The position numbers were made by a program, and so were the translations under genes. Shown one piece after another: positions 1 to 64,000 of a stretch of DNA of 64,000 bases. Numbering within the stretch: position 1 is the stretch's first letter; each line of letters opens with the position of its first letter. Under the pieces are notes generated by a model. It saw only the letters and a list, made by a program, of their open reading frames with translations, had not been told where the DNA came from and did not search any database. The stretch covers positions 64,001 to 128,000 of IMG/VR virus record IMGVR_UViG_3300016665_000824; one strand, 5' to 3'. The DNA is from a virus.

Positions 1-686
1 TGTTCCCCTTCAAACCAAATCATCGGTTTGATCCTACAAATTTACAGTTTGAAGGATGGTTTACTGGGTGTAATTGGTACGAATTGAGAAAGGGCGAGTA
101 CATCACCGCAGAAGAGGAAGTTCTTGACGGCATTGCCTATCAAGGACAGGAAGTAGCGATCATCACAAAGAATGCTTACGAGGCAGAAGTTTTGAACGCC
201 AAGAATATGATGATTGTTGACGTGGATCTTGAGGGTGATCAGGCGATCGTGCAGAATGCTCAGTTCGCTCTTGACGTACTTCGATCTTTTATTAGCAACA
301 CAAAAAATTGGGATCTAGGCTTTAGGGTTTACAAAACTGCGGCAGGTTTGAGATATATCTGCACGACCCATGAATTTGAAGCGACAGATCCTCTTAGCGA
401 CAAGATTATGCGTAATTTACTCGCTGATGATCGCTACCGAGCTTTGTGTAAATTCCAAGATACCTATCGCGCTCGATTAACTCCAAAACCTTGGCGAGCT
501 TCTGACATTGCGTGGCGTAATCGCGGAGTGTGGGATGTTTCAGGCGAATGGGTGGAATATTTCAGGGTGTGTGACTCGCTTAGCCTCTACGGAAATACTA
601 ATATCCTTCCCCAGTTCGCCAAGGCGATCGAATACCATGATCGAATCACAAATGTCTTTGCCGATCCAAAACTAATCCTCGCGTAG
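1..686 (+). CDS. hypothetical protein, probably 5-prime partial (frame stays open to window start; TTG at 84 is the in-window start)
   Basis: No stop codon in this frame between nt 3 and 84; long ORF; no recognisable motif. Confidence 0.45.
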   Translation, partial: FPFKPNHRFDPTNLQFEGWFTGCNWYELRKGEYITAEEEVLDGIAYQGQEVAIITKNAYEAEVLNAKNMMIVDVDLEGDQAIVQNAQFALDVLRSFISNTKNWDLGFRVYKTAAGLRYICTTHEFEATDPLSDKIMRNLLADDRYRALCKFQDTYRARLTPKPWRASDIAWRNRGVWDVSGEWVEYFRVCDSLSLYGNTNILPQFAKAIEYHDRITNVFADPKLILA

Positions 687-1109
687 ATACTCTTCCAGAA
701 TAATCCCGATCTCTACCTCATCCTCTTTGGATACACCCAAGAACTTACGCACGGGTAAACCCTCTAGTCCTAATTGATGCTTCCGCATATAGTCCACATT
801 AGTACCCACAACCACGCGATCTTTAGTTGCCGCATAGTTAATCGAAGCTCGACCTCGACCTGACGCTTGGAGGATTTTATCGATATACCCCTTAGCCTTC
901 TTTAGTCGCCTTGTATAGGGCGTATTAGCCTTCCAAGGGTTTCCGTCGGGGTCAACCTCTTTCTCGAATCTCTGGTCTGTACTCAATAGAAGTTGCTGTC
1001 CGATCTCATTCATTACTGGAGTGAGGTCGGATGTTTTTTTGATCAACTTTCGGAGTTGCTCTTGGATGGCTTTGTCATTATAAGTGAGCGAGATGATTGG
1101 ATCAGCCAT
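672..1109 (-). CDS. phage virion morphogenesis protein (Mu gpG-like)
   Basis: 145 aa; ILQASGRGRASINY segment typical of Mu G-like family; directly downstream of Mu F-like gene with 8-nt overlap. Confidence 0.5.
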   Translation of the reverse strand: MADPIISLTYNDKAIQEQLRKLIKKTSDLTPVMNEIGQQLLLSTDQRFEKEVDPDGNPWKANTPYTRRLKKAKGYIDKILQASGRGRASINYAATKDRVVVGTNVDYMRKHQLGLEGLPVRKFLGVSKEDEVEIGIILEEYLRED

Positions 1110-1812
1110 TGACTTTCGCCTTGATTTGCTTCTTGACTTGAGTTCTCAGGTCTGGGGATAGTCGCTTCAGTCCCTGATTCAATATTTGCTGAGTTGTCTT
1201 CGCGTCTGTACCGCGACGAAAGTTGACACCCATGATCGTGTCGGGATCTGGTGGGTTTTCCAAGATTTCAATACCATTTCGCTCGCAGTAAGCGCGAGAC
1301 ACAGCGATCGCAGTACACTTGCAATTCCAATCACATGGAAATCCTATTCGCCTCCAGAAAGGAGAGGCTGCGGGAATCCCTTTATTGTGTAAAGCCTTAT
1401 GTGCTGGACGAGGCACTACCGAGTCGCGATGTCTCCATACCCATATATCGAGTTTCGCCATCACTTCAGGACTCCGCATCACCTTCTCCCTACCCTGCCA
1501 ATAAGACTTGTTGATATTCGTATCAAAAATCAACTTAATCTTCTGACCATTCGGCTGATATCCTGCGCGACCGATACGACGGTTAAAGCTACGAGTAAAT
1601 TGCTCGAAGGACGTGCCATCTTCAAGGGCTTTACCGATTAACCACTTAGTTGCTTCAAGTAAATCTGCTCGCATTAATCCAGATACCATAAAAGCGTGGT
1701 CGTGGATACGGGCATCTAAACCTTTGTAGTCGGATATAGGTAGAGCTAACCGATCGCGTAAGGCTGCGATCGCATCAACAGGTTTTAACTTCAAATACTC
1801 AGGGGTTGCCAC
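1102..1812 (-). CDS. phage head morphogenesis protein, Mu F / SPP1 gp7 family
   Basis: 236 aa; C-terminal PCDWNCKC resembles the conserved HPNCRC-type motif of the Mu F family; stop/start overlaps neighbours. Confidence 0.6.
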   Translation of the reverse strand: MATPEYLKLKPVDAIAALRDRLALPISDYKGLDARIHDHAFMVSGLMRADLLEATKWLIGKALEDGTSFEQFTRSFNRRIGRAGYQPNGQKIKLIFDTNINKSYWQGREKVMRSPEVMAKLDIWVWRHRDSVVPRPAHKALHNKGIPAASPFWRRIGFPCDWNCKCTAIAVSRAYCERNGIEILENPPDPDTIMGVNFRRGTDAKTTQQILNQGLKRLSPDLRTQVKKQIKAKVNG

Positions 1813-4394
1813 TAGCTCACCCTCCGAAACTTGTCGCGGGTTTCCCAGTAGGCTGCGAGGTAGACTTCCGATGTGGCGATCGCGTCGTTATTGAGTTGAC
1901 TGTCAATGAAGTCGCGTCCCTCCTTCTGCTTTTTCTGGATTTGCTCTTGTTGATAGGCGATCGCTTTTTGTAGTTTTGAGATCTGCTTCTCAGGGGTTAG
2001 TGTTCCAAATCCAGTTATATCTATCCCCATATTGGTTAGTGCTGTTTGAGATGCAGCTAGCGGCTTCTTCCCTGACTGAATTCGAGCAAGGGTCGCCTCT
2101 AAGGTCTTAGTGGTTGCCTCCATCTTGCTGATGTTGTTTTGAAGCGTTTTCAAGTCTATAGGCGGAGTAGCAGTCTTTGATTCAGTACTTGCAGCAGTAT
2201 CCACTGATTTATTTTTACGCGATCGTTTTTGGGTTGCGGTAGTACTGGTTGCAGTACTTACTGATTTACTGCTAGGCGATCGCGTAGAACTTTTTGAAAG
2301 GGGTGGCGCGGCGGAAGACTTAGCTCCGTAGTTTTCGGGATATCGGGCTTTGTTTTCTTGCACCAGTGATTCGTAGTAATCGGCGAATCCGTCTGCCGCT
2401 TCTTTTGCCTGTTCAAGGGAAAAGAAGCGGGTTTTATCTCTGTTCCTACCGCTAAACATATCGGCTAAATCTTCAGGTTCGTGCTCTTCGGTATAAACCA
2501 TCCACCCATCATCTTCTTTTTGGATGGAAATAAAGAGTGATGCGTCTTTGTCTGAAGCCTTTTTTCTTGCGTTGGAGCTGTATCTGTCAGCAGAGTCTGG
2601 ATCTTTAACCCACTCTCCAGCAATAACCTTGTCCAGCTTTTTATTGTATGTTTCTCGTGCTTTCTGTCTTCTCTCTGCGGCTTTCTGTTTTTTGGCAAAC
2701 TCTGCCAGTGTTTTTTCGGCGCTAGATACTAAACTGTTGGACTGACTTGAAGTCAAGTTGTCGGGTTTGCTGCTAGGCGATCGCTCTTGAGGGGTTTCGG
2801 GTTCTGCTTTAGGTGGTTTCGGAGCAACATACTTTTTACCAATCATCGCCTCATGCAGCAGCATTAATTCCTTGGCTTCAGAAGTATCAACACCTAGTGT
2901 CTCGATATCCCTAGCAATGACGGAGGCAAGCTTAGACTTTTGTTCTGGGGTAGCCTTGTCCGCAAACACCTCCTGATCCGACTGAGGAAACTTCTTGGTG
3001 TTTCTCAGCTCGTAAGCCGCATTTATGTTTGCTATCCCATCAACAGCCTTGGAAATCCTAACAGCTTCTTCCTGTGCTATTTCTTTCTTGCTTTTAGGTT
3101 TGACTGGAACATTCGCCTCCTGAGCGATCGCCGCTACTGGCTGGATAACTTCTTCAGTTTTTGGTTTTACCGCCCTGCTGCGACTCTTCTTAGGCTCGCC
3201 CTCTACGGGGTTTTTGGTTGATCTTTCTGTGTTAGGAGTCTCGTCTACCTGAGTTTTTGGAGGCTTAGCCGCTTTCTCTGTCGATCGAGACTTCGCCCGT
3301 GGGTTCTTGATGTTCTCGGCGATCGCCTCTTGAATCTTGTCTTGATTACGAGTAAACCGCATCTCGCCTACACGAATAACTCCTTTCCCATCCCTAAGAT
3401 CGATAGAGTATTGATTTGCACTCTCGGCAAGAGGAGTTCCTTTTTTCTTGTCAATGGCTCCACGAAACTGGATAGAGTCCTCAAGTCCATGTTCTTTAAG
3501 CTTGTCGTATAGTCGCTGCAAATCGACAGACTGTTTTTCGCGAGCAACCTTGTTTACAATACCGTTTCCTGCGCGAGCCTTTACGTCGTCGATACGGACA
3601 TATCCCTCATCATCAGCTAACTCAAGGTTCTGCTTCTTCCTCTCGATCTCTTCTGGGAGGAGTTGCTTACGTTTCAGTTCCGCAGCTAGAGCTAGTTCAT
3701 ACCCCCTCTTTTGGGCGGGGTAATTAACCGAAACTAGCTCCTTCAGGGCTTGAATCTTGGGTTGCTCAGCTTCGTATGCGGACTGGGCTTCTGGAGTTCT
3801 AACCTCTTGAGTCTTCTGCGGTTTTGTTACAGGAGTAGACTCAACCTGTTCAACTATGGGTTCAACCTCTTTAATATCTGTGTTTGCGGGTGGAGTTGAC
3901 TTGTTTGCGATCGCCGCACCAACACCCAATCCAACAGTCGCAGCCGCACCAACACCTACCGCAACATTTCTTGAAGTATTAGAGGGCGGAAGAGTTGGTC
4001 TCTGCCTAACGGGTTCCTGATAAGGTTCACTAGAACGCCCTGCGTTCACCACTGCGCCAGTCAAGGCTAGTCCGCCAACAGCTAATCCCGCACCGATCGC
4101 CGCTTTACTAAGAAAGCCCATCTCAGATTTTGGTGGTTCCTGCGATCGCGCCAATGCTCGCTCTAATTTTGATGGTGGTAGTACATTTACGCCCTGTCCT
4201 TGTGGAGCTTTCCGATAATAAAAACCACCCCTAACACGTCTATCCTGAACGCAAACATAACCTGCCCGTGGAGCGCAAGCATCGTAGCGCAACTTAACTT
4301 CTAGAGCCGCATCAATATACTCTTGAGGCATTACATCAAGAGTAATTTCGTCTAGATACAGACCAGCAAGGTAGTTCTTATCGAGATCTGGCAT
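1812..4394 (-). CDS. large (860 aa) membrane-anchored, low-complexity/coiled-coil protein of unknown function
   Basis: Two Gly/Ala-rich hydrophobic segments near N-terminus, long Lys/Glu/Ser/Thr-rich region; immediately upstream of Mu F-like gene. Confidence 0.55.
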   Translation of the reverse strand: MPDLDKNYLAGLYLDEITLDVMPQEYIDAALEVKLRYDACAPRAGYVCVQDRRVRGGFYYRKAPQGQGVNVLPPSKLERALARSQEPPKSEMGFLSKAAIGAGLAVGGLALTGAVVNAGRSSEPYQEPVRQRPTLPPSNTSRNVAVGVGAAATVGLGVGAAIANKSTPPANTDIKEVEPIVEQVESTPVTKPQKTQEVRTPEAQSAYEAEQPKIQALKELVSVNYPAQKRGYELALAAELKRKQLLPEEIERKKQNLELADDEGYVRIDDVKARAGNGIVNKVAREKQSVDLQRLYDKLKEHGLEDSIQFRGAIDKKKGTPLAESANQYSIDLRDGKGVIRVGEMRFTRNQDKIQEAIAENIKNPRAKSRSTEKAAKPPKTQVDETPNTERSTKNPVEGEPKKSRSRAVKPKTEEVIQPVAAIAQEANVPVKPKSKKEIAQEEAVRISKAVDGIANINAAYELRNTKKFPQSDQEVFADKATPEQKSKLASVIARDIETLGVDTSEAKELMLLHEAMIGKKYVAPKPPKAEPETPQERSPSSKPDNLTSSQSNSLVSSAEKTLAEFAKKQKAAERRQKARETYNKKLDKVIAGEWVKDPDSADRYSSNARKKASDKDASLFISIQKEDDGWMVYTEEHEPEDLADMFSGRNRDKTRFFSLEQAKEAADGFADYYESLVQENKARYPENYGAKSSAAPPLSKSSTRSPSSKSVSTATSTTATQKRSRKNKSVDTAASTESKTATPPIDLKTLQNNISKMEATTKTLEATLARIQSGKKPLAASQTALTNMGIDITGFGTLTPEKQISKLQKAIAYQQEQIQKKQKEGRDFIDSQLNNDAIATSEVYLAAYWETRDKFRRVS

Positions 4395-4953
4395 AATGTC
4401 TTTTCACTTCTAGATAGGCGGCTTGGTACTCAAGGGGTTTGGTTGAGTCAACTCGTTTAGATTTTGCGAGTGGTTTCTTATAGTTCGGAGCCTTGTCTTG
4501 ACCACCACAAGCGCATTGAGCTTTAGTCAACCCTTTCTTCTTGCAGTCCGAACATCCGCATTTATCGTTCATACCCATAGAATCCACCTTGTATTTATTA
4601 CTGCCGTTAGCAGGAAGGCTCTTTGACCACAAATCTTTCCTTGCCCAATGATTGGGACTAAACACGTCGTTTGCTGTGGACTGCCCTGATTTGTTTTTAA
4701 TCCCCGCCGATCGCGCTAAGTAGCTCTTCTTCGCCTCGGCGCTGTAGTTGTTCTGATATCCAGTTGCGCCATAGTGGACAACCTTGATGCGATCGCCTTT
4801 TTTCACGAGTACAGCCCGTTTCTTGCCTGGTCGCCATGACTTGATGGGTTTGTTAAAAGCGGGAAAGGTATGCCCAGCATAGTTAATACCGCCACCTTCC
4901 TTCTTGAGGCAGCGCTTGCCTGCCGAGATATATCCTTTGCCGCATTGAGCCAT
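4378..4953 (-). CDS. basic Cys-rich hypothetical protein
   Basis: 191 aa ORF, Lys-rich with CGCSDC and CACGG cysteine clusters; 17-nt overlap with downstream gene. Confidence 0.4.
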   Translation of the reverse strand: MAQCGKGYISAGKRCLKKEGGGINYAGHTFPAFNKPIKSWRPGKKRAVLVKKGDRIKVVHYGATGYQNNYSAEAKKSYLARSAGIKNKSGQSTANDVFSPNHWARKDLWSKSLPANGSNKYKVDSMGMNDKCGCSDCKKKGLTKAQCACGGQDKAPNYKKPLAKSKRVDSTKPLEYQAAYLEVKRHYARSR

Positions 4954-5039: not shown

Positions 5040-6593
5040 TTGGCATTTAGTTGTGCGATCGCTATGGCAAAATTTACAACAGGAGATCAGGCTTCAACTG
5101 CTGCTCTGTCGCGAGTTGACACTCTTCTCCAAACTATAAATACCGACGCAGACTATGCGCTTTGGCGGGAATGGATTTATGACAGGGCGATCGCCAAACT
5201 AGCACTAGGCTTAACTGGCGGAGGTGGAAGCTCCACTTCAATTCTTGCGGGTTTCAAGGCGATCGCTAATGGCACTGGCTACAGTATTGGCGATTTGATA
5301 TTTTTGCGGCAAACAGGAACTAACCAAACCGAATATTACAACGGTACTACAGGTTTAGTTATTACACCTGCCCCACCTAGCAGCGATCTTGGCTCTATTA
5401 TCTCTTCTAGTAATGTTGCTGTTACATCACTTCCTCCATTGCCGTCTGGCGCAAATACCATTGGCGCTATATCAAATGCTAGTTTTGGTATTAGTGGTAG
5501 CTTGCCAGCATTTGCTAGCACACCCACAGTAAATATTGGTACTACTGGCGCGATCGCCACTGATAGCACCTTACAGCAAGTAAGGGACGCGATCAAAGCA
5601 CAGATCGATATCGCCTCAACAATTTGGACAGATAACACAGATACTTTTTATGTACGACGAGATCTGGTAAACGAAGGAACGGGAGTAATCACTGTATCTT
5701 TTACTTTGCCAGACGGTACGGCGGCTACACCTAGCGCTGGACTTAGACCTCTAGCAACCGTAGATAAAGATGTTCTTAGTGATTATTACGATGTATTGAT
5801 TGCGGGTACTGGCTATGCGATCGGGGATTTATTAGCAAGGGTTGCGATCATTGATGCAAACGGTGCTTCTCCAACATCAACATTTATCTGGCTGAATTTG
5901 ACGGCAGGGACAATCCTCGGAACAGCACCTAGTTCTGCAAATATTGAAAGAGCGAACGAAACTATCGGTGCTAGGCAAAGCGGTACATGGAATATCACCA
6001 ATATTAGTGGTACGGTATCACTACCTACGGGAGCCAGTACATCGGCTAATCAGGCTACAGCGATCTCAAGCCTTGGCAGCATTGACGGAAAACTCCCTGC
6101 GAGTTTAGGGGTAAAAACTGCTGCTAATTCACTTGCTGTAACGCTTTCAACGGATGGAATCGCGAGTGGAATTGACACAAAAATTGGCGAAGTCCAAACA
6201 ACTCCAACTGCTAATACTGTTTTGGCGAGATTAAAAAATATTGCTGATGCGTTGGTGTTTGGGGCAAAATCACCAGCTAATAGTATTTCAGTTACCCAAG
6301 CTTTCGCCGCAACATCTACCCTAGCGAATGTGGCTAGTAGTGCGACATCAGTTAGCTTGTTAGCTGCCAACAATAACCGCAAAACAGCAATCATTCTAAA
6401 TGATTCGACTTCAGATTTATACGTTACTCTCAACGCAAGCGCCGCCAGTACGACGAATTATTCATTATTTTTAGCCGCTAAAGTTGGTAACACGCCATCA
6501 TTTTTAGCTATAAATGGTGATGATTATTCGGGCGAAATTCGTGGAATTTGGAGTAGTGCTAATGGTTTCGCAAGAATTACGGAGGTCGTGTAA
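5040..6593 (+). CDS. tail fibre-like protein (Ser/Thr/Ala/Gly-rich); ATG at 5064 is an alternative start
   Basis: 517 aa low-complexity S/T/A/G/N-rich composition typical of fibre/receptor-binding proteins; stop overlaps next start (TAATG). Confidence 0.5.
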   Translation: MAFSCAIAMAKFTTGDQASTAALSRVDTLLQTINTDADYALWREWIYDRAIAKLALGLTGGGGSSTSILAGFKAIANGTGYSIGDLIFLRQTGTNQTEYYNGTTGLVITPAPPSSDLGSIISSSNVAVTSLPPLPSGANTIGAISNASFGISGSLPAFASTPTVNIGTTGAIATDSTLQQVRDAIKAQIDIASTIWTDNTDTFYVRRDLVNEGTGVITVSFTLPDGTAATPSAGLRPLATVDKDVLSDYYDVLIAGTGYAIGDLLARVAIIDANGASPTSTFIWLNLTAGTILGTAPSSANIERANETIGARQSGTWNITNISGTVSLPTGASTSANQATAISSLGSIDGKLPASLGVKTAANSLAVTLSTDGIASGIDTKIGEVQTTPTANTVLARLKNIADALVFGAKSPANSISVTQAFAATSTLANVASSATSVSLLAANNNRKTAIILNDSTSDLYVTLNASAASTTNYSLFLAAKVGNTPSFLAINGDDYSGEIRGIWSSANGFARITEVV

Positions 6594-7498
6594 TGATTAT
6601 TGTTAATAATTCCACTAGTGCTGCTGGCATTGGGAAAAACTATTTTAAGAATCCCAATTTTCAAGTAATCCAAGGCACTGCATCAGGGACGCTCGCCAAT
6701 TCCACAGCATTACCCACAGCATCACTAGGATACCTAGGTGAGACTGAATGGGGTATTGCGGCGGCGGGTGGCACTCCTGCTTATGCTTTTAGCTCAGCGA
6801 ATGAATCTGTTACCTTTACGGGTGCAGCATCAACTACCGCTATTTATTTGCTTCAAAGACTTGAAAGCAGAGATATTACTACTCTAGCCAACAAACTGGC
6901 GACAATTACTTTTAGTGCTGAGATATCTAATTCGCTGCTTACTTCGGTAATTTGGGAAGTATTTCGCCCTACTACCACTGCTGACACTCATGGCACAATT
7001 GGCACACCTACGCAGACATTGATTGCTAGTGGAACGTTCACCGTAAACTCAACGCTGACAAAGTATAGCGCCACATTTACCCTTCCTGCATTAGCTGCTA
7101 ATGGACTGGAGGTAAGACTAAGAGTAGGGGCGCAAACTTCTGGAACTTGGGTGGTGTCAAGGTTGCAATTAGAAGAAGGTAGTGTTGCTACTAACTTCAT
7201 TTGTGATGATTATTTGACTGAATTGAATCAATGTCAAAGATACTTTAGAAGATTATCAGATTATCTATATGTTTATTTTGGTACTACTGGTGTATTAAAT
7301 AGTGAACGAATGCATTTAAATATGTTTGGTACTACTAGAATTAGAAATTTAATAGCACAAAATTCAATAGGTGGAACTGGAGTTACTATATCAGCAGGAC
7401 TTAATGAAGATTCAACTAGAGCTAATTATATAAATAATGCTGGAGCTGGTTACTATGGTGGCAATCCATTATATACAGTGTCAGCACACATCCCTTAA
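6593..7498 (+). CDS. tail fibre-like protein
   Basis: 301 aa, S/T/A/G-rich, translationally coupled to upstream fibre-like gene. Confidence 0.45.
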
Positions 7499-7515
7499 AA
7501 ATACAAATAAAAACA

Positions 7516-7896
7516 ATGGAATTTACATATAAACTAATACAAAATCAACCAAACTCCATCATAAGACTTGAAGATGGAGCAATTATCCCAGAAGGGCATA
7601 ATGGTGATTGGCAACTTTACGAGGCATGGTTAGCTGAAGGAAATACGCCTGAAGCCGCTGATGCGCTGCCTATTGTAGTGCGGGAAATCGATGCTCGTAA
7701 ACTGCGATTAGCTTTGCTTCAATTAGGGCATCTATCTACCGTCACTAGCGCTATTTCTAGCCTTGGTGAGGCTGCAATCATTGATTGGGAATATGCCACA
7801 ATCATTCGCGAAGATTACCCTTTGGTACTGGCTTTGGCAAGCAATTTAAATTTGGATATTAAAGCAATATTTGATTTAGCGAATTCATTGGTGTAA
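7516..7896 (+). CDS. hypothetical protein (possible tail-fibre assembly/chaperone by position)
   Basis: 126 aa ORF directly downstream of fibre-like genes; positional inference only. Confidence 0.35.
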
Positions 7897-7898
7897 TT

Positions 7899-8444
7899 GT
7901 GGCAGGAGATCTAATCCCAATCTTAAAGAGCTATTTTGATTTTGCGGTGATCGCGCAAATATCGGACAATAGAGGTACGGTTGGGATACCTTCTCAATCA
8001 AATCCCCCCGACAGCAGCATCAGCCAGATCAGCACTGCTGCTGTCGGTAGTGCTGTCGTTGTTACTGCTCTTTTTAAATTGTTTGAAAAATTTGGAACAA
8101 ATGTAATTGATGGGCAAAAAAGCAGGCTTAGCCTTGATTTAAAGGCTAAAGAGCTAGAGCTAGAATTTGAAAAGGCTGAAAAGTTGGCAGCCAGAAAAGA
8201 GGAAGAGCGCAAAACTGAACTAATCGAACAAATACTGAATAACGCACTGTCACACGTTTACAGCACAGCCAAAGAAAACAAAGAAATTTACCATGAATTG
8301 CTTGAAAAATTCCAAAAAAGTAACGAAATTAACGAGAAAGCTTGGAGCAAAATAGAAGAACAAAGCCAAGAAATCCATTTGTTAAACCAAACTTTAAAAG
8401 ATGTTTTAGCGACGCTAAGTTTGAAAGATCGTCAAAAAACCTAA
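7899..8444 (+). CDS. hypothetical protein with hydrophobic segment and Lys/Glu-rich coiled-coil region
   Basis: 181 aa ORF; start 3 nt after upstream stop. Confidence 0.4.
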   Translation: MAGDLIPILKSYFDFAVIAQISDNRGTVGIPSQSNPPDSSISQISTAAVGSAVVVTALFKLFEKFGTNVIDGQKSRLSLDLKAKELELEFEKAEKLAARKEEERKTELIEQILNNALSHVYSTAKENKEIYHELLEKFQKSNEINEKAWSKIEEQSQEIHLLNQTLKDVLATLSLKDRQKT

Positions 8445-8510
8445 AACAAAAGCCCAACTCAAGCTATGGCAAGAATTGGGCGTAGGTTACGGACAGGGGT
8501 GGCTATGGGG

Positions 8511-8930
8511 TCAGGCCATTCCTACTTGATCTTGACCAGATAACGTAGCGATCGCCAACCACTCCGCTAGTCCATCGGCAAATCCTTTGTCACTGTATTC
8601 GTCAAGGCTGTAGATAGAGTCGATGCGATCACGCACCTCTTCTAGCGTCAAACCTTCTTTTTGCCATTGTTTTAGCTTTCGCCCAATCACTTGATTGAAC
8701 TTCTCGATTTGTGGCGCTAGATTTTCTCTCGCCAACTCAGAAATGCGATCGCGCAAATCATTCTCTTCGATTTCGGAGATCTCATCGTCAAACCGTTGCA
8801 GATATTCGGGATTTTCTTGAGCAATGCGAACGCGGAGTAGCTGTATCGCATCATCGAACAGGATGTCGATTTCGTTAGGTGCGATCGCGTCAGTCCTATA
8901 GCCAAGCTTTTCTAATACTTCGAGTTTCAT
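8511..8930 (-). CDS. hypothetical protein
   Basis: 139 aa ORF, 4-nt overlap with upstream gene. Confidence 0.4.
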   Translation of the reverse strand: MKLEVLEKLGYRTDAIAPNEIDILFDDAIQLLRVRIAQENPEYLQRFDDEISEIEENDLRDRISELARENLAPQIEKFNQVIGRKLKQWQKEGLTLEEVRDRIDSIYSLDEYSDKGFADGLAEWLAIATLSGQDQVGMA

Positions 8931-9337: not shown

Positions 9338-9552
9338 TTTAATCCTAAATCCTTGGTGGCTTTGATAGCGTCCTTTTCTGAGTCGGCGGCGTACAGGCAA
9401 AACTTGTCGGCGATCGCCTGTACCTTCCATAGCCCTGCCCATCCCTGCTCGATCTCAACTGGTTCCTGTGTATTCACAATGTTGGTGGCACGAATCAAGG
9501 TGTTGCTGAGCAGGTGGGAGTTTTGAATATCTTCGAGTGTTAATTTTGCCAT
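9328..9552 (-). CDS. hypothetical small protein
   Basis: 74 aa; ATG immediately follows the stop of the 551-aa gene (TAAATG on minus strand). Confidence 0.4.
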   Translation of the reverse strand: MAKLTLEDIQNSHLLSNTLIRATNIVNTQEPVEIEQGWAGLWKVQAIADKFCLYAADSEKDAIKATKDLGLKCI

Positions 9553-11208
9553 TTATTTGAGTCGTCCCTCAACCCACATCTTAGCAAAGGGAGAGTCCAA
9601 ATCCTTAAACAACCGAGAAGCAATTTCTACAGCCGAAACGGAATCCTGTTTAACACCTTCTTCGGGAGGTGTATCTGCTTGACCCTGATCTGCACCTTGA
9701 TCGCCAAAGTAGTCGCCACCTTGATCGCCGCCATATCCCTGTAGAGCTGCAAGCTCTTGTTGCTGCTTGGCTAATTCTTCATCCTGCTTCAGTTTTTCCC
9801 ACGCTTCCTTATCGAGAGAGACCTCATAGGAGTACTCTGTTCCACCGTAGAGGCTAGCGCGAACTTCATCCTTAGTAATTGCTCCCGACTGGGTTTGCAG
9901 AGCGATAAGCATATTAGTGTGAGCAGTTTGGTTGGCTACTTCATCTTTGCGACTCTCTACATAGAGGGGTTTAAACTTATAAGACCATCCTTCAGGGATC
10001 TTACCCTTCGTAGGGCCATCTTGAGCGAGCCAAATATACTTGTAAAGCATATCCAACTTGCGGTGGCGATAATTCTGCTCTTGATAGGCAGCAACGGTCT
10101 TTGACCAAACCTGATCTTCGGTTTCTCCAGTACCACCTGCCGCTAACCCTTTTGGTCCACGCCCAAAGATCATTGTGTAAGGAATCCCCACCGCAGCAAC
10201 CAAATCTTCTTGAAAGCTCGCTTTCATGTCGGACAAGCCTTGGTAGTTCCGCACTAGATAAGTAAGGTCATCTTCCGAGTCTACCGACACCGCCCCCAGC
10301 TTCCGCATCTGCATCTTCATGGCGCGAAACTGTTCTGAAAGAATGGTTAAAGCTTTTGGCACTCCATTGGTAGTGGCAGCTCCACCAGCAGCTTTTTCTT
10401 GGGCAAGATTTTGTTTGATCAGGTTTTGCAGGTTCTTCATCTTGTGGAGAAGAATCGTGTGATCTTGAATCATCTCCGCCATTGCGTCGGAGACTTTTGT
10501 GTAGCGAGCAATTTCTTTGAGTGCTGAGACGATTAGCGGATCGCCCCATCCACCCGTCGATCGCAACAATCTTGGAGGTAATCGAGAACCATCAAATCGA
10601 ATAATCCGCGATTTGTGAATTAAGTTGAACGAGGTGTAGTTTGAGCCTAACTTATCTATCTTGGATTTCGATTCTTGGGAGTAAAAGACCTGATAAAAGT
10701 CGGGGTCATCAGAGGGTGCATCAAGGTTTGGGAAATACGGGCGGATATCCTGCGGGTCAAGCTCGTAGATACCCTTGATGGTTTTAATTTTTGCCGTGTT
10801 AACTGGCTCGTTTGGGGGTAGCCCATCATCGATATTGACGAGAATAGCTGCGCCGCCATAAATATTCGCTAGCCAGTCAGCCTTATTAAATTTGTATTTC
10901 GCTTCTATCCTTTCTTCGTACTGTTCAAAGGCTGTGGCAATCTTGCGATCAGTGTCCTTAACTAAGCTAATCTCAGTCCATTTTCTTGTTGCCTCGTCAG
11001 GAAACACCGAGACAATTTTCTTTCCTAGCCAGTCCCTAGATAGTTCTTCGAGGGCTTTGTAGCTTAGTCTGCGCCGATCGCCTGTGCTATTCATCCCCAG
11101 ATCATTCTGAGCGAGCAGGTTGTTGTTGTACTCAGCCTCATAGAGCGCATCGATAATGGCTCCGTCTTGTCTCACATAGACTTCGGGATAATCTGTTTCT
11201 TTGGACAT
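9553..11208 (-). CDS. major virion structural protein (portal or major capsid candidate; not resolvable by eye)
   Basis: 551 aa ORF with Gly/Asp/Gln-rich C-terminal tail; preceded by intrinsic terminator and leader inverted repeat; downstream of a coiled-coil scaffold-like gene. Confidence 0.6.
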   Translation of the reverse strand: MSKETDYPEVYVRQDGAIIDALYEAEYNNNLLAQNDLGMNSTGDRRRLSYKALEELSRDWLGKKIVSVFPDEATRKWTEISLVKDTDRKIATAFEQYEERIEAKYKFNKADWLANIYGGAAILVNIDDGLPPNEPVNTAKIKTIKGIYELDPQDIRPYFPNLDAPSDDPDFYQVFYSQESKSKIDKLGSNYTSFNLIHKSRIIRFDGSRLPPRLLRSTGGWGDPLIVSALKEIARYTKVSDAMAEMIQDHTILLHKMKNLQNLIKQNLAQEKAAGGAATTNGVPKALTILSEQFRAMKMQMRKLGAVSVDSEDDLTYLVRNYQGLSDMKASFQEDLVAAVGIPYTMIFGRGPKGLAAGGTGETEDQVWSKTVAAYQEQNYRHRKLDMLYKYIWLAQDGPTKGKIPEGWSYKFKPLYVESRKDEVANQTAHTNMLIALQTQSGAITKDEVRASLYGGTEYSYEVSLDKEAWEKLKQDEELAKQQQELAALQGYGGDQGGDYFGDQGADQGQADTPPEEGVKQDSVSAVEIASRLFKDLDSPFAKMWVEGRLK

Positions 11209-11257
11209 ATTCAGTGGCGATCGCGTATGTCCATCTGACAGGCGATCGCCACTGAAT
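11209..11257. promoter_or_regulatory. perfect 16-bp inverted repeat (ATTCAGTGGCGATCGC / GCGATCGCCACTGAAT, 17-nt spacer) abutting the start codon of the 551-aa gene
   Basis: Read directly: arms 11209-11224 and 11242-11257; start codon at 11206-11208 on minus strand. Confidence 0.55.
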
Positions 11258-20230: not shown

Positions 20231-20233
20231 ATG
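20212..20233 (+). repeat. gene-junction repeat GGCGATCGCGGAGGAATAA + ATG (copy 1)
   Basis: Identical 19-mer at 20419-20437; degenerate third copy at 20682-20703. Confidence 0.7.
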
Positions 20234-20703: not shown

Positions 20704-20710
20704 AAATATA

Positions 20711-42415: not shown

Positions 42416-42429
42416 TTCAGGAGAATATA

Positions 42430-45160: not shown

Positions 45161-45386
45161 AGAAGATGCTGAAGAATGCTTAGCTAAAAATCTAAAGGTT
45201 GTAACGCGCTATGGGCTAGGCGAAATTATTTCGATCGCCAAGAAAAGCGACCCAGTACAATGGGCAGAGATAAAACAACTTGACCGCGATCGCCAGTTTG
45301 AAGTACCCAGATGTCTATACCTATCGAGCATCAGCAGATATACTGCTGTTTTGGTTGAGCAAAGTGAAGTAGAAAGTATTTTTTAA
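45153..45386 (+). CDS. hypothetical small protein (start at ATG 45153 after GGAGGG)
   Basis: Internal ATG of track ORF 44979..45386 with RBS. Confidence 0.35.
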   Translation: MTREDAEECLAKNLKVVTRYGLGEIISIAKKSDPVQWAEIKQLDRDRQFEVPRCLYLSSISRYTAVLVEQSEVESIF

Positions 45387-50331: not shown

Positions 50332-51481
50332 ATTTCTTGGGCATAATTACCGATGTCAGGAATGATTCCTGCTCTACTCCGTCGCAAGGGCTAACCATTA
50401 CTAGCGGTCGAGTTCCCTCGTATACCTCCAGCTTAATGTGTTTTGATTTTGTGGTATCCAAAATATGCTGCAAGTATTTTATGTTGAACCGAGCAGCAAA
50501 TCCTGACACGCCAACATCGCATGGCAGTGATTCTTCCACCCTGCCAACACCCGCAACTTCAGCAACAAGTATCAACTCATCACCCTTGATAGTGATGTCA
50601 ACCAAGTAGCTAGTAATCTCACCCTCACACAACGAAGCAACGGTCTTCAAGCTGGTAATCAGCTCTTTGCGATCGCACTTTACCGACCCAGACATCTCTT
50701 TGAGCCGTACGTTAACGAGACTCGATCGTACTGGTGGAAATGGTTGAGCAATTAGTGGTGAGATGATGGTTAGCGCGTGGCTATAAAACCAAATATGGTT
50801 ACTGGCTAAACGCACTTCAGTCTCTGCTTGGGTGATGTGCAGAACCTCTTTGAGCGATCGCGCAGGTATTGTCGCATTAATCAGCTTTTCACTCAATTCG
50901 GGGTGGACAAATCTGATACAAGATCCTCGACAGCCATCGGTTGCTGTGAAGGATAGGAATCTCGTCGGGTCATCTTCACCATCAATGATTTCGTCGTACT
51001 CCGCTAGGTTCACACCCGTAAGTGCAGGCTTAGTTTCGTCGTTAGATACGAGCTTTAAGGTAGCCACAATGCCGTCCCGCAGTATATCTGTGGCGATCGC
51101 AAAGGTGTCAGCATCAGTAATCTTGGGGGTGCTTGGGTATGAGTCGGCGCTGATAGTTGGTAGTGAGATTTTACTCTTACCACACTTAATAGTGGCAATA
51201 CCTTCGGATACCTTGATTAAAACCTCTTCACCGTTGAGGGACTTTACCGCGTCGGAGAATCGCTTGGCATTGAGCGCGATCGCGCCCTCTTCTTTGATAC
51301 TATCGGAATCCTCTCTGCGGATTAGCCAAAGCTTTAGGTCGGTAGCTGTGATGGTGAAGAGATCGTTCTTCGCTTCGAGTCGAAAGTTTGTTAAGATTTC
51401 CTGCGGTGGAGACTTAGAAACAGCTTCCTTTACTGCGTCCACCATCGATTTCAACGTTTTGAGAGGGAGTGTTAGTTGCAT
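50300..51481 (-). CDS. dnaN: DNA polymerase III beta subunit-like sliding clamp
   Basis: Matches to DnaN pattern: LFTITATDL, FTATDGCRG, FNIKYLQHILD, MPKKF near C-terminus; acidic tail. Confidence 0.55.
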   Translation of the reverse strand: MQLTLPLKTLKSMVDAVKEAVSKSPPQEILTNFRLEAKNDLFTITATDLKLWLIRREDSDSIKEEGAIALNAKRFSDAVKSLNGEEVLIKVSEGIATIKCGKSKISLPTISADSYPSTPKITDADTFAIATDILRDGIVATLKLVSNDETKPALTGVNLAEYDEIIDGEDDPTRFLSFTATDGCRGSCIRFVHPELSEKLINATIPARSLKEVLHITQAETEVRLASNHIWFYSHALTIISPLIAQPFPPVRSSLVNVRLKEMSGSVKCDRKELITSLKTVASLCEGEITSYLVDITIKGDELILVAEVAGVGRVEESLPCDVGVSGFAARFNIKYLQHILDTTKSKHIKLEVYEGTRPLVMVSPCDGVEQESFLTSVIMPKKFEEDEDDEED

Positions 51482-51775: not shown

Positions 51776-52279
51776 CTATTCAAAAACCGAGTGGCAAACG
51801 AGACATACATAAGCAGCGATCGCGTAGACATACTTATACTCCGATGGGAGGAATGTCGGTTGCAATAGGGCATATCCAAAGACTCCTGTGAAAACAAAGG
51901 CGATCGCTGCCACCATCTTTTTACCGATCAGTTTTGCCCATAGGTTGGCAAGACCTAAAACCAGCAACCAGAAAAGTAGTGACGGACGGAGCAACAGCCA
52001 GTTAACGAAGAATCTAACCGCATGGATGTCATGCCTGCGATGGAATAATCTAGAAACAGGGTGGACTATGCCGTGGTGAACGAAGTTACTTAAGGGTATG
52101 CAGTCTCGAAGTAGTAACTCGCGAGAAAGATTAGCGTAGGTCATGTGATGGGTCTGATTAGATTTTAGGAACGGGAATACAGCACACCTGTCGAACATAA
52201 TGCTACGAAATTTTCGAGACTTCTGCTGCCAATCTTTTGAATGAATGTAGGCTTGATAATCTACTCTTACTTTTGTCAT
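51776..52279 (-). CDS. integral membrane protein
   Basis: 167 aa with several hydrophobic segments (LLLRPSLLFWLLVLGLANLWA, AIAFVFTGVFGYALL). Confidence 0.45.
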   Translation of the reverse strand: MTKVRVDYQAYIHSKDWQQKSRKFRSIMFDRCAVFPFLKSNQTHHMTYANLSRELLLRDCIPLSNFVHHGIVHPVSRLFHRRHDIHAVRFFVNWLLLRPSLLFWLLVLGLANLWAKLIGKKMVAAIAFVFTGVFGYALLQPTFLPSEYKYVYAIAAYVCLVCHSVFE

Positions 52280-53424
52280 TGTTTTTTGAATCTCTTATAA
52301 ACAGTTTCTGTATACTCAGCAATACTGGGGTAGGAGTTTCCACCATAGGTTTGGGGACGAGTGTTGTTAAATAGAGCTGGATCTCCCGAATACCAAATCG
52401 AAGCAGCCTTCCGAATTTGTTCTTCTTCGGATTTCGATGTTGGGGCGACCTGTTTTAGAGCTTCCTCTAACTTGCAGTCAATGATCTTGACCTGCTTAGT
52501 CTTGTCTTTAAGGAATTCCTGTTCGGTTAATGGAGAGCCGAGGCATTGAGTACTCCACGACTTGATGTTTTCAGGCATTATCTGCCCATAACCCAATGCG
52601 CCGCTATCTGCATTGATAGCTTTATGGTCGTGGTTTGATTCTTGACCAGCGATCGCATTACGAAGTCTCTCAACGACAGGTTTGGCTGGAGCCTTGGTCG
52701 GCTCTGTCCCCTGCAATAACCACGAGACAATACCTCTTGGAGGATTAATCAACTCGCCCTTGAACTTAACTCCGACGTGCAGGTGTGGACCGCTAGATGC
52801 TCCCGAATTTCCAGATTTGGCAATCATCGATCCGACGGGATGCCTACCTGAATAGCACTCGTTTAAGTGGAATAACTGGATTTCATATTCGGGTAGCAGA
52901 GGGCTGGTTACATAAGCTGCCACCCCTTCTGGCGGATTGAATGGGCTGAACGGGCAGGCAACATCTACAAAACCGTCATGAAATGCACTTTTAGAGCCTA
53001 ATTTCCCGATCGCGTAAACAGGAGTTCCAACTGGAGTTGCGATGTCAACGCCTTTGTGGTCTTCGCTACATGATGGGCATGGTTTTTCTCTCTTACCAAA
53101 GCCAGAAGTGACTTCATAGCCAAGTATTTTGTCCCCAACTTTAAGTGGCTCGTTAAAGTCCTCATCGGGCTTGAAGTTAACTTCAAGAGATGTCTTTGCG
53201 ACTGTTGGTAGTCCCAGAAACCTGTAAGCCCACTTAACCGAATCGTTTGCTGGCTTGTAGAGGATCGCGATCGCAATTAACGCGATCGCGAATAATTTAC
53301 CGTTTCTCCAGCGAGTCTCCTTTGCTTCGAGCTTCTCGTGGTAAACGATCTGAAACTCTTTGCTGGTTTCCTCCAGTTTCGGTTTTGGTGGTAGAAGGGG
53401 TCTCTTCTGGTGGCTTAAAACCAT
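52276..53424 (-). CDS. bifunctional peptidoglycan hydrolase: M23 peptidase + lytic transglycosylase-like domain, membrane anchored
   Basis: M23 motifs HKGVD and HLHVG; later QESNHD...GALGYGQIMPEN resembles SLT-type motif; N-terminal hydrophobic anchor. Confidence 0.6.
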   Translation of the reverse strand: MVLSHQKRPLLPPKPKLEETSKEFQIVYHEKLEAKETRWRNGKLFAIALIAIAILYKPANDSVKWAYRFLGLPTVAKTSLEVNFKPDEDFNEPLKVGDKILGYEVTSGFGKREKPCPSCSEDHKGVDIATPVGTPVYAIGKLGSKSAFHDGFVDVACPFSPFNPPEGVAAYVTSPLLPEYEIQLFHLNECYSGRHPVGSMIAKSGNSGASSGPHLHVGVKFKGELINPPRGIVSWLLQGTEPTKAPAKPVVERLRNAIAGQESNHDHKAINADSGALGYGQIMPENIKSWSTQCLGSPLTEQEFLKDKTKQVKIIDCKLEEALKQVAPTSKSEEEQIRKAASIWYSGDPALFNNTRPQTYGGNSYPSIAEYTETVYKRFKKQ

Positions 53425-54314: not shown

Positions 54315-55658
54315 TTAAGCCGTTCTTGGAAACAGCACTAGGTTGTCTTTACCGATCGCGAGGATTCTATCAAGAGCTTCCTCCACCGATTCTTCAGTGA
54401 CTTCCGACTTCTCGGAATCAAACCTGAAGCCGTCCAGATGCTTGAGATCTGGCATTAATGCAATCTTGGGTATACCCATTGTGGTTAGCAATACTGGGCG
54501 ATCGCCTTGCTTCTTAGCCATTGCGATCGCATCTCCAAGCATCCCCGCAAGAGATAATCTTTGCTGCTTATTAGGGAATAGTTTTGCATCGGCAAGAGCT
54601 GCTTCAATGGGCCTATAGCCAACATCATTCTTTTCACCCATGCGACCTAGCGCAAGAACTGAGAAGCAGCCTCGCACTGGGTCGCTGAAGCCAATTTGAG
54701 TACAAAGGTGAGTTTGCGCGACAAGAATAAGGCGAACACACATCTCTCTTCCCATAGCAACTATCTGATTGAGCATTCCAAAAAATTCTGCCTCTCTTTT
54801 TGAGGAAGCAATCATGTCTTGTAGTACCCACCACTCGTCAAGGATTAGATATTGAGGGGCAAAGACTGGGCGCTTCCCGCCTTCTCGTAATATCTTTTGT
54901 ACTGCGCGAATCCTATTCTTCATGATCTTAAAGGCGCGGCTAATCTGCTCGGAAGCAGCATCAAGCTGCTCGTCTTGCGTGTCTTGATCTAAGTAGGTGA
55001 CGATGCCATCTTCGCTTTGAAGCCCTAGCCAGTCCGTTGTCTTTGGATCGACAATACCGAATTTAGAAGCGGGGTTGATCTTCTTTATTCGCTGGATAAG
55101 CGCCTTTAGCAAGGTAGACTTACCCGCGCCAGACTTGGTGGCAATCAGTACATGAAGATCTGTGTGAGCCACCTCGCCGATAATATCTCCAGTAAACACT
55201 CCTTTCGAGTACTCGGTAACAGCTATAGGCTCTTCGTCCGTATAAGGCTCGTCATCAAACTGAGGAGGTCTAACTGCTGCTACTGGTTGAGGGCGAGGCG
55301 CGGATGTGCGCTGAACATTGGTATTGCGAATAATTACTGGGGCAGCAACTTGCTGTTGAGCGTGAGGCAGAGCTACTGGAGTCTCCTCGCCTTTGGGTTG
55401 TTCATCTTCAAGGTTGCTTGCCAAGCCGACACCTGACGCGATCGCCATGCCAAGAAAAGCCAAAGTAGCAATAGGATTATTGTAGGAACTGGGCTGAAGT
55501 ACAGCCTGTTGCCCATGATCGTTAACACTTGAGTCTACCCTCCTGTATTCGTCTGCGGACTTAAATAGGACATCTCTCGGTAATACCGACCATCCAGCAG
55601 CTCCTAGCCATGCTGCACAGCTAATGCCTAATAGTAGGTTTACTGTTGACTTCTTCAT
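54315..55658 (-). CDS. FtsK/SpoIIIE-like membrane-anchored P-loop ATPase
   Basis: Walker A IATKSGAGKST, Walker B YLILDEW; N-terminal hydrophobic segment and Pro/Gln-rich linker. Confidence 0.5.
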   Translation of the reverse strand: MKKSTVNLLLGISCAAWLGAAGWSVLPRDVLFKSADEYRRVDSSVNDHGQQAVLQPSSYNNPIATLAFLGMAIASGVGLASNLEDEQPKGEETPVALPHAQQQVAAPVIIRNTNVQRTSAPRPQPVAAVRPPQFDDEPYTDEEPIAVTEYSKGVFTGDIIGEVAHTDLHVLIATKSGAGKSTLLKALIQRIKKINPASKFGIVDPKTTDWLGLQSEDGIVTYLDQDTQDEQLDAASEQISRAFKIMKNRIRAVQKILREGGKRPVFAPQYLILDEWWVLQDMIASSKREAEFFGMLNQIVAMGREMCVRLILVAQTHLCTQIGFSDPVRGCFSVLALGRMGEKNDVGYRPIEAALADAKLFPNKQQRLSLAGMLGDAIAMAKKQGDRPVLLTTMGIPKIALMPDLKHLDGFRFDSEKSEVTEESVEEALDRILAIGKDNLVLFPRTA

Positions 55659-58441: not shown

Positions 58442-58545
58442 ATGCACAAGAAATCCCGAAATCGTGTGCATGTTTATTCAATATACACAAGCAACCCGCC
58501 AAGCCTCTCTACGATGCTGAAACTGGCGGGTTGCTTGTGTTGTGA

Positions 58546-61591: not shown

Positions 61592-62683
61592 TTAATTATG
61601 TGTTAAGGGGGTTATCTTGGAGGTTTTAGCACCCTCCTCAGAAAGCCTTGCTAGGTAAGCAGACACCCGCCGTCGCAAACTTTTTTTCGACAGTAAATCA
61701 TACTCTTTTTCAAAGATACAGCAAAGTGATTTGTAAAACAAGTTTTTATACTTGAAATAATGAGTATTCACCCTTTCTGCATCAGCAAAATGTCGAGACA
61801 GATAATAGGAATAGTTTACTTCCGCATTGGAGTCTGTTTGACAAATATGTACTCGTCTCAATCTACTGAGAGACCTGCGATCGCGTACTTCTTCGTCAAT
61901 GGCTCGAATCGCATCAAGGATCTCAAGGTCATCGCTAAATGGTTCGGCGGCTTGATGGATCTCTTTTAAGTAGGAGTCCCATCGCCGAGTTAGCGATCGC
62001 TCCTTGAGATGATTTGATATGGTTCGAGCTGTGACTCCCAATGACTTAGCTATTTCTAGCTGAGAAGCGCCATAAGGTACGAAGTTCTCGTTAGTATAAA
62101 TCCTGTCCTTAGATACTGCCTCAACACCCTCAATCCCCATAGAACATAATTCAGAGGCTTGGAGTTTTAGCAAGTCCTTTGCAGGTACTAACCTGAGTTT
62201 TTTCTTTACTTTGCGCTGCTTGTTTTTTTCTTTTTCTGCCAGTCCAGCAGCAAATTTAGAACGAGCTTGTTTTGCAAGTAATTCGGCGCGAGTACAGTGA
62301 TACTTAACTTGAGTGATCTGAATCGGACTTAGTTCGACTATCGACCCAAGTTTGGCAACATCATGTTGTTTGCAGACCTTGCCAATACTTGTGTATCGCA
62401 CCCATGCTCGACCTTCTGGTAGCCACCGATAATCGATAAGCAATCCAGCTTTGTGAGACTCCCTAATCCATTTTTTGAGTGTGTCGGGTTTTACGCCGCA
62501 ATCACTCGCCAAATGACTGATATTGAATTTAACCCAGCCTTTCCCGCGATCGCTTCTAGATGAAAACTGATCTAGCCCACGCACGACATGCCAAATATTT
62601 ACTGCGCCGATCGCATGATTTTTGATCACGGCGTAGAGAATATTTGTGTAAGTTGTGGCAATTATGGGGTAATATAGTTTCAT
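61592..62683 (-). CDS. HTH domain protein (sigma-70 region-4-like / putative regulator)
   Basis: LEIAKSLGVTARTISNHLK helix-turn-helix; 363 aa. Confidence 0.45.
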   Translation of the reverse strand: MKLYYPIIATTYTNILYAVIKNHAIGAVNIWHVVRGLDQFSSRSDRGKGWVKFNISHLASDCGVKPDTLKKWIRESHKAGLLIDYRWLPEGRAWVRYTSIGKVCKQHDVAKLGSIVELSPIQITQVKYHCTRAELLAKQARSKFAAGLAEKEKNKQRKVKKKLRLVPAKDLLKLQASELCSMGIEGVEAVSKDRIYTNENFVPYGASQLEIAKSLGVTARTISNHLKERSLTRRWDSYLKEIHQAAEPFSDDLEILDAIRAIDEEVRDRRSLSRLRRVHICQTDSNAEVNYSYYLSRHFADAERVNTHYFKYKNLFYKSLCCIFEKEYDLLSKKSLRRRVSAYLARLSEEGAKTSKITPLTHN

Positions 62684-63590: not shown

Positions 63591-63638
63591 CTTGGTTTTC
63601 AACAAAAAAGCACCCCGCCTAAACGAGATGCTTTTCAC

Positions 63639-63908
63639 TTACCTTGGCAGATCCCTCACGATCGCCCTAACAATCCCCTCGAACTCTCGTTCTATAAGCA
63701 TGAAAGACTCCTGCCTCGACTCCGCTCGCCTAGCCATAACGGCATCAAATATCTCCGCGTCGCGTTGCTTCAATACTAATGCTGGCTCAGTATTCGGCGA
63801 GAAGCCCCTAACGTAATACGGGAAATAATCAACCCTCCAGTACCGCACTAAGCCATCGTCGGGATTGAGGAAATCTACAGGCGCGATCACCGTGTAAATA
63901 AAGTCCAA
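63639..63908 (-). CDS. hypothetical protein
   Basis: 89 aa ORF. Confidence 0.3.
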   Translation of the reverse strand: MDFIYTVIAPVDFLNPDDGLVRYWRVDYFPYYVRGFSPNTEPALVLKQRDAEIFDAVMARRAESRQESFMLIEREFEGIVRAIVRDLPR

Positions 63909-64000
63909 ATTAATCCCGTCTAGCTCGACCTCCTCCTCGCATTGAGGGCAGATCCATCCCCGTTGAATGGTTGCATTGTCAGGTATTGAGGTGACTGGGG

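Follow-up and report, generated by a model that had tools for sequence, protein, structure and literature searches.

Introduction

HIP1, the 8-base palindrome GCGATCGC, is a signature of cyanobacterial chromosomes and plasmids, in which it is more than 100-fold enriched and is found in all reading frames and in non-coding DNA (PMC4390886, PMC5861425, PMC3025956). In these replicons the sites are conserved beyond codons, most CGATCG hexamers lie inside HIP1, and highly expressed genes hold few sites (Delaye et al. 2011, PMC3025956; Xu et al., PMC5861425). The density in Synechococcus elongatus PCC 7942 is 2.7 per kb (7,402 HIP1 in 2.7 Mb), and the repair-ratchet model of Elhai 2015 (PMC4390886) places saturation at approximately 1 per kb. 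In the HIP1 literature, DNA poor in the octamer is taken to be foreign. The question of what HIP1 does has stood for three decades, and viruses are left out of the main analyses that we examined: neither these analyses nor the genome paper of Aphanizomenon phage vB_AphaS-CL131 (CL131) mention HIP1 on phages, and a literature search on HIP1 with phage or cyanophage found no report of phage HIP1 enrichment; journals outside its coverage may hold some. Here, we describe HIP1 at host-type density on a phage genome, in a 64,000-base stretch (the window) at positions 64,001 to 128,000 of IMG/VR virus record IMGVR_UViG_3300016665_000824. The enrichment is a known cyanobacterial signature on a new phage and not a new type of element.

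The window corresponds to positions 56,779–120,778 (reversed) of the 134,398-base ENA metagenome contig ERZ27292652 k141_20893, with sequence identity verified, and together with 8.9 kb before its start and 9.5 kb past its end the sequence covered amounts to 82.4 kb. All 82 kb are phage-like and no host gene was found in them, and the window is best explained as 64 kb from the interior of a large tailed cyanophage genome. The joint explanation that we favour, with moderate confidence, is that this cyanophage has ameliorated to the signature of a HIP1-rich host, that its HIP1 sites are held by a host process and that it persists as an episome partitioned by ParA.

Results

HIP1 is present at 185 exact sites, which form a field over the entire window (1–64000, no strand). 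The original prediction, made by eye, had HIP1 recurring frequently against a chance expectation of approximately one per 65 kb, and counting bears this out: dinucleotide-preserving shuffles (n = 100) contain a mean of 1.02 HIP1 and a maximum of 5, which puts the observed count far above the composition-matched expectation, at an enrichment of approximately 180-fold. Shuffling of synonymous codons, with proteins and codon usage kept, leaves 31 sites on average and 40 at most, from a codon usage that is itself inflated by HIP1. The density is one site per 346 bases (approximately 2.9 per kb), with a mean gap of 334 and a median gap of 262 bases, and each 4-kb bin of the window holds 6–17 sites. 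The flanks are equally dense, with 18 sites in the 8.9 kb before the window start and 24 in the 9.5 kb past its end. The density of the window is comparable to that of the PCC 7942 chromosome and is the highest HIP1 density that we met in a long stretch. As in cyanobacterial replicons, most CGATCG hexamers (185 of 244) are embedded in HIP1 and all reading frames are used (97 sites as GCG-ATC-GCN, 42 as NGC-GAT-CGC and 27 as NNG-CGA-TCG-CNN), with a further 19 sites intergenic or spanning gene boundaries.

The spacing of the sites is compatible with a random model. Gaps fit an exponential distribution (coefficient of variation 1.0, Kolmogorov–Smirnov p = 0.13), and no regular or periodic spacing is seen at this scale; the published HIP1 periods are tens of kb, beyond what 82 kb can show. 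Two HIP1-free stretches stand out, at 5557–8548 and 9417–11217. The portal gene (9553–11208, minus strand; PF06381, E 1.5e-57) contains no HIP1 in 1.66 kb, and the portal, major capsid and cement-like genes combined contain none in 3.4 kb, where the background is 2.8 per kb. This parallels the low number of sites in host genes with high expression. The other stretch falls largely in a four-gene tail-fibre cassette (5040–8444, plus strand, opposite to the surrounding structural genes), whose gene at 6593–7498 matches phrog_4492 (E 6e-19). The cassette has a GC content of 0.413, 1 CGATCG, 4 HIP1 in its first 520 bases and 0 across 5557–8548. These features suggest that the module was exchanged with a related cyanophage poor in HIP1; an origin as non-cyanobacterial DNA is unsupported, given that the cassette retains the palindrome avoidance of the window described below. 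At 20213–20714, an identical junction, GCGATCGCGGAGGA(A/G)T(A/G)A, stands before each of three consecutive small genes; in it, HIP1 directly adjoins the ribosome-binding site and the overlapping stop and start.

Comparison with relatives indicates that the sites are retained as sites. The closer relatives (69–97% identity in the terminase large subunit, TerL, and 78–84% in DNA) come from JGI, IMG/VR and Logan assemblies, with contigs of up to 93 kb, and are likewise HIP1-rich at 1.4–3.7 per kb. Against relatives that are 78–83% identical, HIP1 retention is 55–85%, compared with 13–30% for neighbouring octamers. In the JGI relative (78.5% identity), HIP1 is found in both genomes at 30 of 37 sites, whereas only 58 of 343 in-phase octamers at 12–36 bases from HIP1 are identical (Fisher P = 3e-15). 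An IMG/VR relative retains 44 of 52 sites versus approximately 29% of neighbouring octamers, and the structural region of a third relative retains 11 of 20 versus 13%. At conserved amino acids, the six codons that form HIP1 stay the same in 149 of 151 cases within the octamer and in 345 of 510 outside (P = 3e-19). Xu et al. 2018 (PMC5861425) applied the same codon-conservation test to host genomes, with the same outcome as in the phage. Hence, HIP1 is maintained at the DNA level in this phage lineage.

The pressure towards HIP1 has also reshaped the phage proteins. Ala-Ile-Ala is the most over-represented tripeptide in the window proteins: composition predicts 9.3 occurrences, and 97 are observed. 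Every one of the 97 is encoded by GCGATCGC, where codon usage predicts 10%. The second most over-represented tripeptide is Gly-Asp-Arg.

Beside this one enriched palindrome, many others are missing. CCGG is entirely absent from the window, compared with a mean of 155 (minimum 127) in first-order Markov simulations and 92 (minimum 72) in codon shuffles, and GGCC is found 9 times against 179 (Markov) and 133 (codon shuffle) expected. CYCGRG and GRCGYC are both at 0, and 27 of the 64 hexamer palindromes are absent, compared with 0.02 in simulations and 0.38 in codon shuffles. Of the 2,016 non-palindromic hexamer pairs only 38 are absent, most of which contain CCGG, GGCC, CCWGG or GGWCC. Both flanks and the relatives show the same avoidance. 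Avoidance of hexamer palindromes is also common to CL131 and Planktothrix phage PaV-LD, and is not seen in the Microcystis phages Ma-LMM01 and MaMV-DC.

This fingerprint points to a host. Among the replicons compared, plasmid pPg_02 of Pseudanabaena galeata CCNP1313 (70.6 kb sampled) matches best; it carries 1.40 HIP1 per kb, 3 CCGG and 13 GGCC and lacks 22 hexamer palindromes, 19 of them among the 27 absent from the window (P = 2e-7). The observed/expected ratios of palindromes in the two correlate with a Spearman coefficient of 0.84, and pPg_02 has the highest tetranucleotide correlation with the window outside the phage's own relatives. A Pseudanabaena strain is among the genomes highest in CGATCG density (Elhai, PMC4390886). 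Our best guess from these k-mer profiles is a Pseudanabaena-like host, which would be the most likely one. The long association with the host background that had been proposed for this DNA is upheld by the conserved HIP1 positions, the distorted Ala-Ile-Ala content and a palindrome avoidance that matches a host replicon.

A search of phage and plasmid collections with 25 kb of query DNA gave no near-identical match. TerL (45383–47011, minus strand; phrog_2, E 8e-28) has at most 29% identity to any isolated phage, and the nearest capsid and portal proteins are those of CL131, PaV-LD and Synechococcus phage S-CBS4, at 28–34% identity. The head module is syntenic with that of CL131, with DUF2213, DUF2184 capsid and PF06381 portal in the same order. 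TerL homologues at 38–47% identity were found at 47 genome loci, almost all of them cyanobacterial and some in complete chromosomes. HIP1 density at the cyanobacterial loci is mostly 0.4–3.5 per kb, with a few near none (for example Caldora with 0 sites and Symploca with 1), while a Balneola locus holds 0 and a Longimicrobiales locus 4 in 21.5 kb at 64% GC, so density tracks the host in these related loci. The HIP1-rich cyanobacterial host of the original prediction is thus well supported by comparison at the protein level: the TerL loci are nearly all cyanobacterial, the nearest capsid and portal proteins are those of cyanophages, and ParA (see below) is nearest to that of cyanobacterial plasmids. 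The phage itself is best explained as a distant new member of the CL131/PaV-LD group. Separately, the TerL homologue of Leptolyngbya sp. FACHB-671 (676 residues), in a related cyanobacterial prophage, carries domains of the intein/LAGLIDADG type (PF14528, PF14890), which makes it a terminase with an intein.

In the cyanophage pieces sampled, CL131 has 68 HIP1 in 45 kb, PaV-LD 14 in 20 kb and Mwe-JY05 5 in 50 kb, whereas Pan2 has 0 HIP1 and 1 CGATCG in 50 kb, and Ma-LMM01 and MaMV-DC each have 0 HIP1 and 0 CGATCG in 20 kb. Given that the last three are without HIP1, richness in the octamer is a trait of the CL131/PaV-LD-like group and the lineage of the window and not of cyanophages generally. 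The near-total lack of CGATCG in Pan2, Ma-LMM01 and MaMV-DC looks like active avoidance.

In cyanobacteria, HIP1 goes together with methyltransferases for GATC (DmtA) and CGATCG (DmtC), and the window encodes two DNA methyltransferases. The first is a Dam-like D12 N6-adenine enzyme (17897–18814, plus strand, with the called gene start at approximately 18110; PF02086, E 7e-43), which aligns over its full length in the PDB with DpnM (E = 2e-37) and with Escherichia coli Dam. Both are GATC enzymes, and because the D12 enzyme is most like them, its probable target is GATC, the core of HIP1, and methylation of that core is likely. The second is a C5-cytosine enzyme (34583–35572, plus strand; PF00145, E 1e-39), for which the top 120 homologues are only unnamed metagenome proteins and the PDB matches are generic. 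Its candidacy as an orthologue of DmtC, which acts on CGATCG, is unsupported, with no named DmtC-like relative in the top 120.

The predicted GATC methylase bears on a different account of the sites, in which HIP1 would be positively selected for the benefit of the phage, as a copy of a host ‘self’ mark methylated by the Dam-like enzyme together with a host CGATCG methylase, so that the phage DNA would be treated as resident by host repair, recombination or defence. Recent work ties methylated HIP1 to the acceptance of incoming DNA, HIP1 positions and synonymous sites are conserved across diverged relatives, and the density is at or above that of the most HIP1-rich chromosomes (PCC 7942, 2.7 per kb) and exceeds that of the sampled host-like plasmid. 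HIP1 does not come automatically with infection of cyanobacteria either, given that other cyanophages are without it. However, HIP1 has no established function in any replicon, the repair ratchet predicts conservation equally well, the C5 methylase of the phage is without DmtC-like support, and the random spacing and the lack of HIP1 in capsid, cement and portal genes argue against a need for regular coverage. We consider selection of this kind possible and, on balance, doubtful; maintenance of HIP1 by a host process remains the account that we favour.

As to lifestyle, protein-family scans of the 82.4 kb assigned no protein to the integrases, resolvases or transposases, and they found no DNA polymerase family there. 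The absence of an integrase from the window had been noted in the original prediction; it extends to the flanks, as far as 8.9 kb to the left and 9.5 kb to the right. No tRNA genes as integration targets and no long terminal or att-like direct repeats are found in the window. The ParB-like protein and DnaN had been put forward as partition-like genes, and neither qualifies: a ParB_N match does exist (49672–50331, minus strand), at 22.7 bits and below the Pfam cut-off of 26.3, and DnaN (50300–51481, minus strand) is the beta sliding clamp of replication.

A partition-like locus is instead found approximately 2 kb past the window end (window-equivalent approximately 65.9–68.0 kb), made up of ParA, a ribbon-helix-helix (RHH) protein and a non-coding stretch with repeats. 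ParA best matches its counterparts from plasmids of cyanobacteria (Crocosphaera, Nostoc, Dolichospermum and Planktothrix), at 55–59% identity over the full length, and in several Planktothrix records the matching gene stands at position 1. The small RHH protein follows ParA, and upstream of ParA are 1.26 kb of non-coding DNA; they include a 97-bp tandem repeat (2.4 copies) with HIP1 sites and are a candidate centromere or origin. ParA is not an assembly chimera, given that it is 93% identical and syntenic in an IMG/VR relative. Beside the ParA module is a DNA-binding protein of the HTH_36 family (61592–62683, minus strand), which has only 25% identity to hypothetical proteins of two cyanobacterial plasmids and is a possible plasmid-type initiator. 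It was also considered as a second copy of the DnaD-like initiator of the window and rejected, the two proteins being without similarity. One relative was recovered in two independent assemblies (86.5 and 92.7 kb), both of which stop approximately 56.4 kb beyond the head-completion gene. This shared end is, by synteny, near the ParA repeat region and could be the physical terminus of the genome or a repeat at which assembly breaks.

The original prediction had left two options, a phage-plasmid or an integrase outside the window. The lack of an integrase in 82.4 kb and the plasmid-type ParA with its RHH partner outside the window fit the first. On the evidence of these genes, a phage-plasmid state is plausible but unproven. 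The second option would make the phage an ordinary integrated prophage, with integrase and att sites in the remaining 52 kb and HIP1 gained through long residence in a chromosome. TerL relatives at 38–47% identity do lie inside complete cyanobacterial chromosomes and PaV-LD carries an integrase. A Cro/CI-type HTH_3 regulator (24028–24261, plus strand; PF01381, 28.6 bits), divergent from a leftward operon, and a Rha gene in the left flank are present as well; both point to a temperate habit. Against integration stand 82 kb with no integrase and no host gene, and a plasmid-type ParA module conserved in the lineage. The position of the contig ends also counts here. Relatives carry more than 10 kb of tail genes after the head-completion gene, one of them for a 2,923-residue protein, and the contig ends 4.7 kb past its head-completion gene. 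Because of this arrangement in the relatives, the remaining 47 kb at the other end probably hold the tail module, in a genome that would be circular or permuted, and not host DNA. We therefore regard an ordinary prophage as unlikely.

We also considered that the phage is strictly virulent, as CL131 is in culture, that it acquired HIP1 and its palindrome avoidance only through repeated lytic cycles in hosts rich in HIP1, and that ParA has a role outside the maintenance of a prophage. CL131 is HIP1-rich and without an integrase, and its structural modules are syntenic with those of the window. ParA, the RHH protein and the upstream 97-bp repeat, however, have the architecture of a plasmid partition system, a Cro/CI-type regulator sits at a divergent junction, and the other isolates sampled (Pan2, Ma-LMM01 and MaMV-DC) are without HIP1. 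Strict virulence is, in our judgement, improbable.

The remaining gene content is that of a tailed phage with its own replication genes. The gene classes of the original prediction are borne out in the window by TerL, the Mu F-like head protein, the portal, DnaG, DnaB, DnaN and the FtsK-like ATPase. The virion and packaging set comprises TerL, portal, Mu F-like, capsid, scaffold-like, cement and tail-fibre proteins, with tail genes seen only in relatives. On the minus strand, a virion morphogenesis protein (Phage_tail_S, PF05069; 672–1109) has 50% tblastx identity to CL131 gp023; the same strand carries a Mu F-like minor head protein (1102–1812; PF04233, phrog_220 E 7e-51) and a second segment of the minor head/DNA pilot family (4378–4953; phrog_220 E 2e-31). 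Genes of the left flank encode the Rha regulator, a DUF2213 protein, a cement-like protein, the DUF2184 major capsid protein and an E217_gp27-like head-completion protein.

Replication genes are DnaG primase (20875–22632, minus strand), a replication initiator or DnaD-like helicase loader (25994–27220, plus strand; phrog_270, E 2e-11) and the DnaB replicative helicase (27213–28952, plus strand). A block for nucleotide and DNA metabolism (36476–42792, plus strand) was assigned through Pfam and includes a dCTP deaminase-like protein (36476–36982), ThyX (37880–38752), RusA (40275–40799), MazG (41241–41597) and SSB (42430–42792). An M23 peptidase or SLT-like cell-wall hydrolase (52276–53424) and an FtsK/SpoIIIE-like P-loop ATPase (54315–55658; phrog_1358, E 1.7e-8) are encoded on the minus strand. 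Two pairs of direct repeats of 34–35 bases, 97% identical (32072/32617 and 32350/33091), flank small genes at 32072–33125, which suggests a recent local duplication.

The window further contains a near-consensus abiF-motif RNA (58495–58531, plus strand; RF03085, 46.9 bits versus a gathering score of 37), which is absent from the relatives. It is an orphan, with no Abi_2/AbiF toxin family among the neighbouring proteins or in the Pfam lists. Given that abiF RNA neutralises the AbiF toxin in trans (PMC12373285), the orphan RNA could be a phage-borne antitoxin mimic directed against abortive infection by the host.

Discussion

The explanation that we favour starts from a phage whose DNA would have acquired the oligonucleotide profile of its host, a HIP1-rich cyanobacterium that is likely Pseudanabaena-like. 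HIP1 sites would arise in place through point substitution and would then be held by a DNA-level process that acts on host replicons, be it an Elhai-type methyl-directed repair bias or selection on HIP1. The phage probably replicates with the polymerase and repair of its host, given that it has DnaB, DnaG, DnaN, SSB and a GATC-type methylase and no polymerase in 82 kb. Long periods in the host lineage were probably spent as an episome partitioned by ParA and not as an integrated prophage, and exposure to many restriction systems would have removed the other palindromes.

Several observations weigh against this explanation. HIP1 density in the window is approximately twofold that of the sampled Pseudanabaena plasmid and approximately threefold the saturation of the Elhai model (PMC4390886), and simple drift to the host level may not suffice; this excess over plasmid and model leaves room for selection in the phage. 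Selection and repair bias explain the positional conservation of HIP1 equally well, the C5 methylase is not tied to CGATCG, and the host call rests on k-mer resemblance within a small set of replicons. Regarding the episome, the integrase search covers 82.4 kb, and record positions 1–47,245 and 129,678–134,398 may carry an integrase, att sites and host genes. No cyanobacterial plasmid with this TerL was found in PLSDB, and the more distant TerL relatives are chromosomal. HIP1 richness alone does not prove an episomal or temperate life, because CL131 is HIP1-rich (1.5 per kb) and yet behaves as virulent in culture, without an integrase (CL131 genome paper).

A bolder combination is conceivable, in which the lineage keeps HIP1 at the density of its host or higher as a mimic of the self mark, partly methylated by its own GATC methylase, purges the other palindromes and persists as a ParA-partitioned plasmid prophage. 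We rate it as speculative and rather unlikely. If true, cyanobacteria would gain their first phage-plasmid, and the lineage would be a natural demonstration that HIP1 acts on whichever replicon a cell contains and is not a matter of chromosome architecture. Returning to the explanation that we favour, if the ParA module does maintain an episome, cyanobacteria would be added to the hosts of phage-plasmids.

The interest lies mainly in such phages as tests of HIP1 function. A phage lineage here reproduces the HIP1 density, the positional conservation and the protein distortion of its hosts on a viral replicon. HIP1-rich phages, of which CL131 is culturable, and HIP1-free ones (Ma-LMM01, MaMV-DC and Pan2) offer a practical comparison for ideas on HIP1, and could separate replication by host machinery, methyl-directed repair and selection as a self mark. 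The k-mer fingerprint, HIP1 plus the absent palindromes, appears suitable for the host assignment of uncultured cyanophages as well.

Phage-plasmids such as P1 and N15 combine a complete virion and packaging set with ParA-type partition and a repressor-type regulator. The phage described here resembles them in its virion set, its ParA-type locus, its repressor-type regulator and the lack of an integrase in 82.4 kb. It has no sequence relationship to them, and its plasmid-like state is predicted from its genes. Compared with cyanobacterial replicons, HIP1 here is carried by a virus genome, at approximately 3 per kb and with no periodic spacing detectable at this scale.

The closest described phages, CL131 and PaV-LD, share the module of DUF2213, cement and DUF2184 proteins, a PF06381 portal with Mu F-like parts, DnaB, a C5 methylase and RusA. 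They are HIP1-rich too (1.5 and 0.7 per kb by our own counts) and strongly avoid hexamer palindromes. In contrast, protein identity is only 25–34%, TerL belongs to a different clade, and the phage of the window has a plasmid-type ParA, an approximately two- to fourfold higher HIP1 density and no CCGG. In CL131, unlike in the window, portal and Mu F parts form one giant fused protein, and PaV-LD has an integrase, whereas none was found in the 82.4 kb.

Avoidance of restriction sites is known from older restriction mapping of cyanophages that infect filamentous cyanobacteria. The likeness lies in the loss of AvaI-type and AcyI-type sites, of GGCC and of many 6-bp palindromes. What differs is the unusual extent of the loss, with CCGG at 0 and 27 of 64 hexamer palindromes gone, side by side with one hugely enriched 8-bp palindrome.

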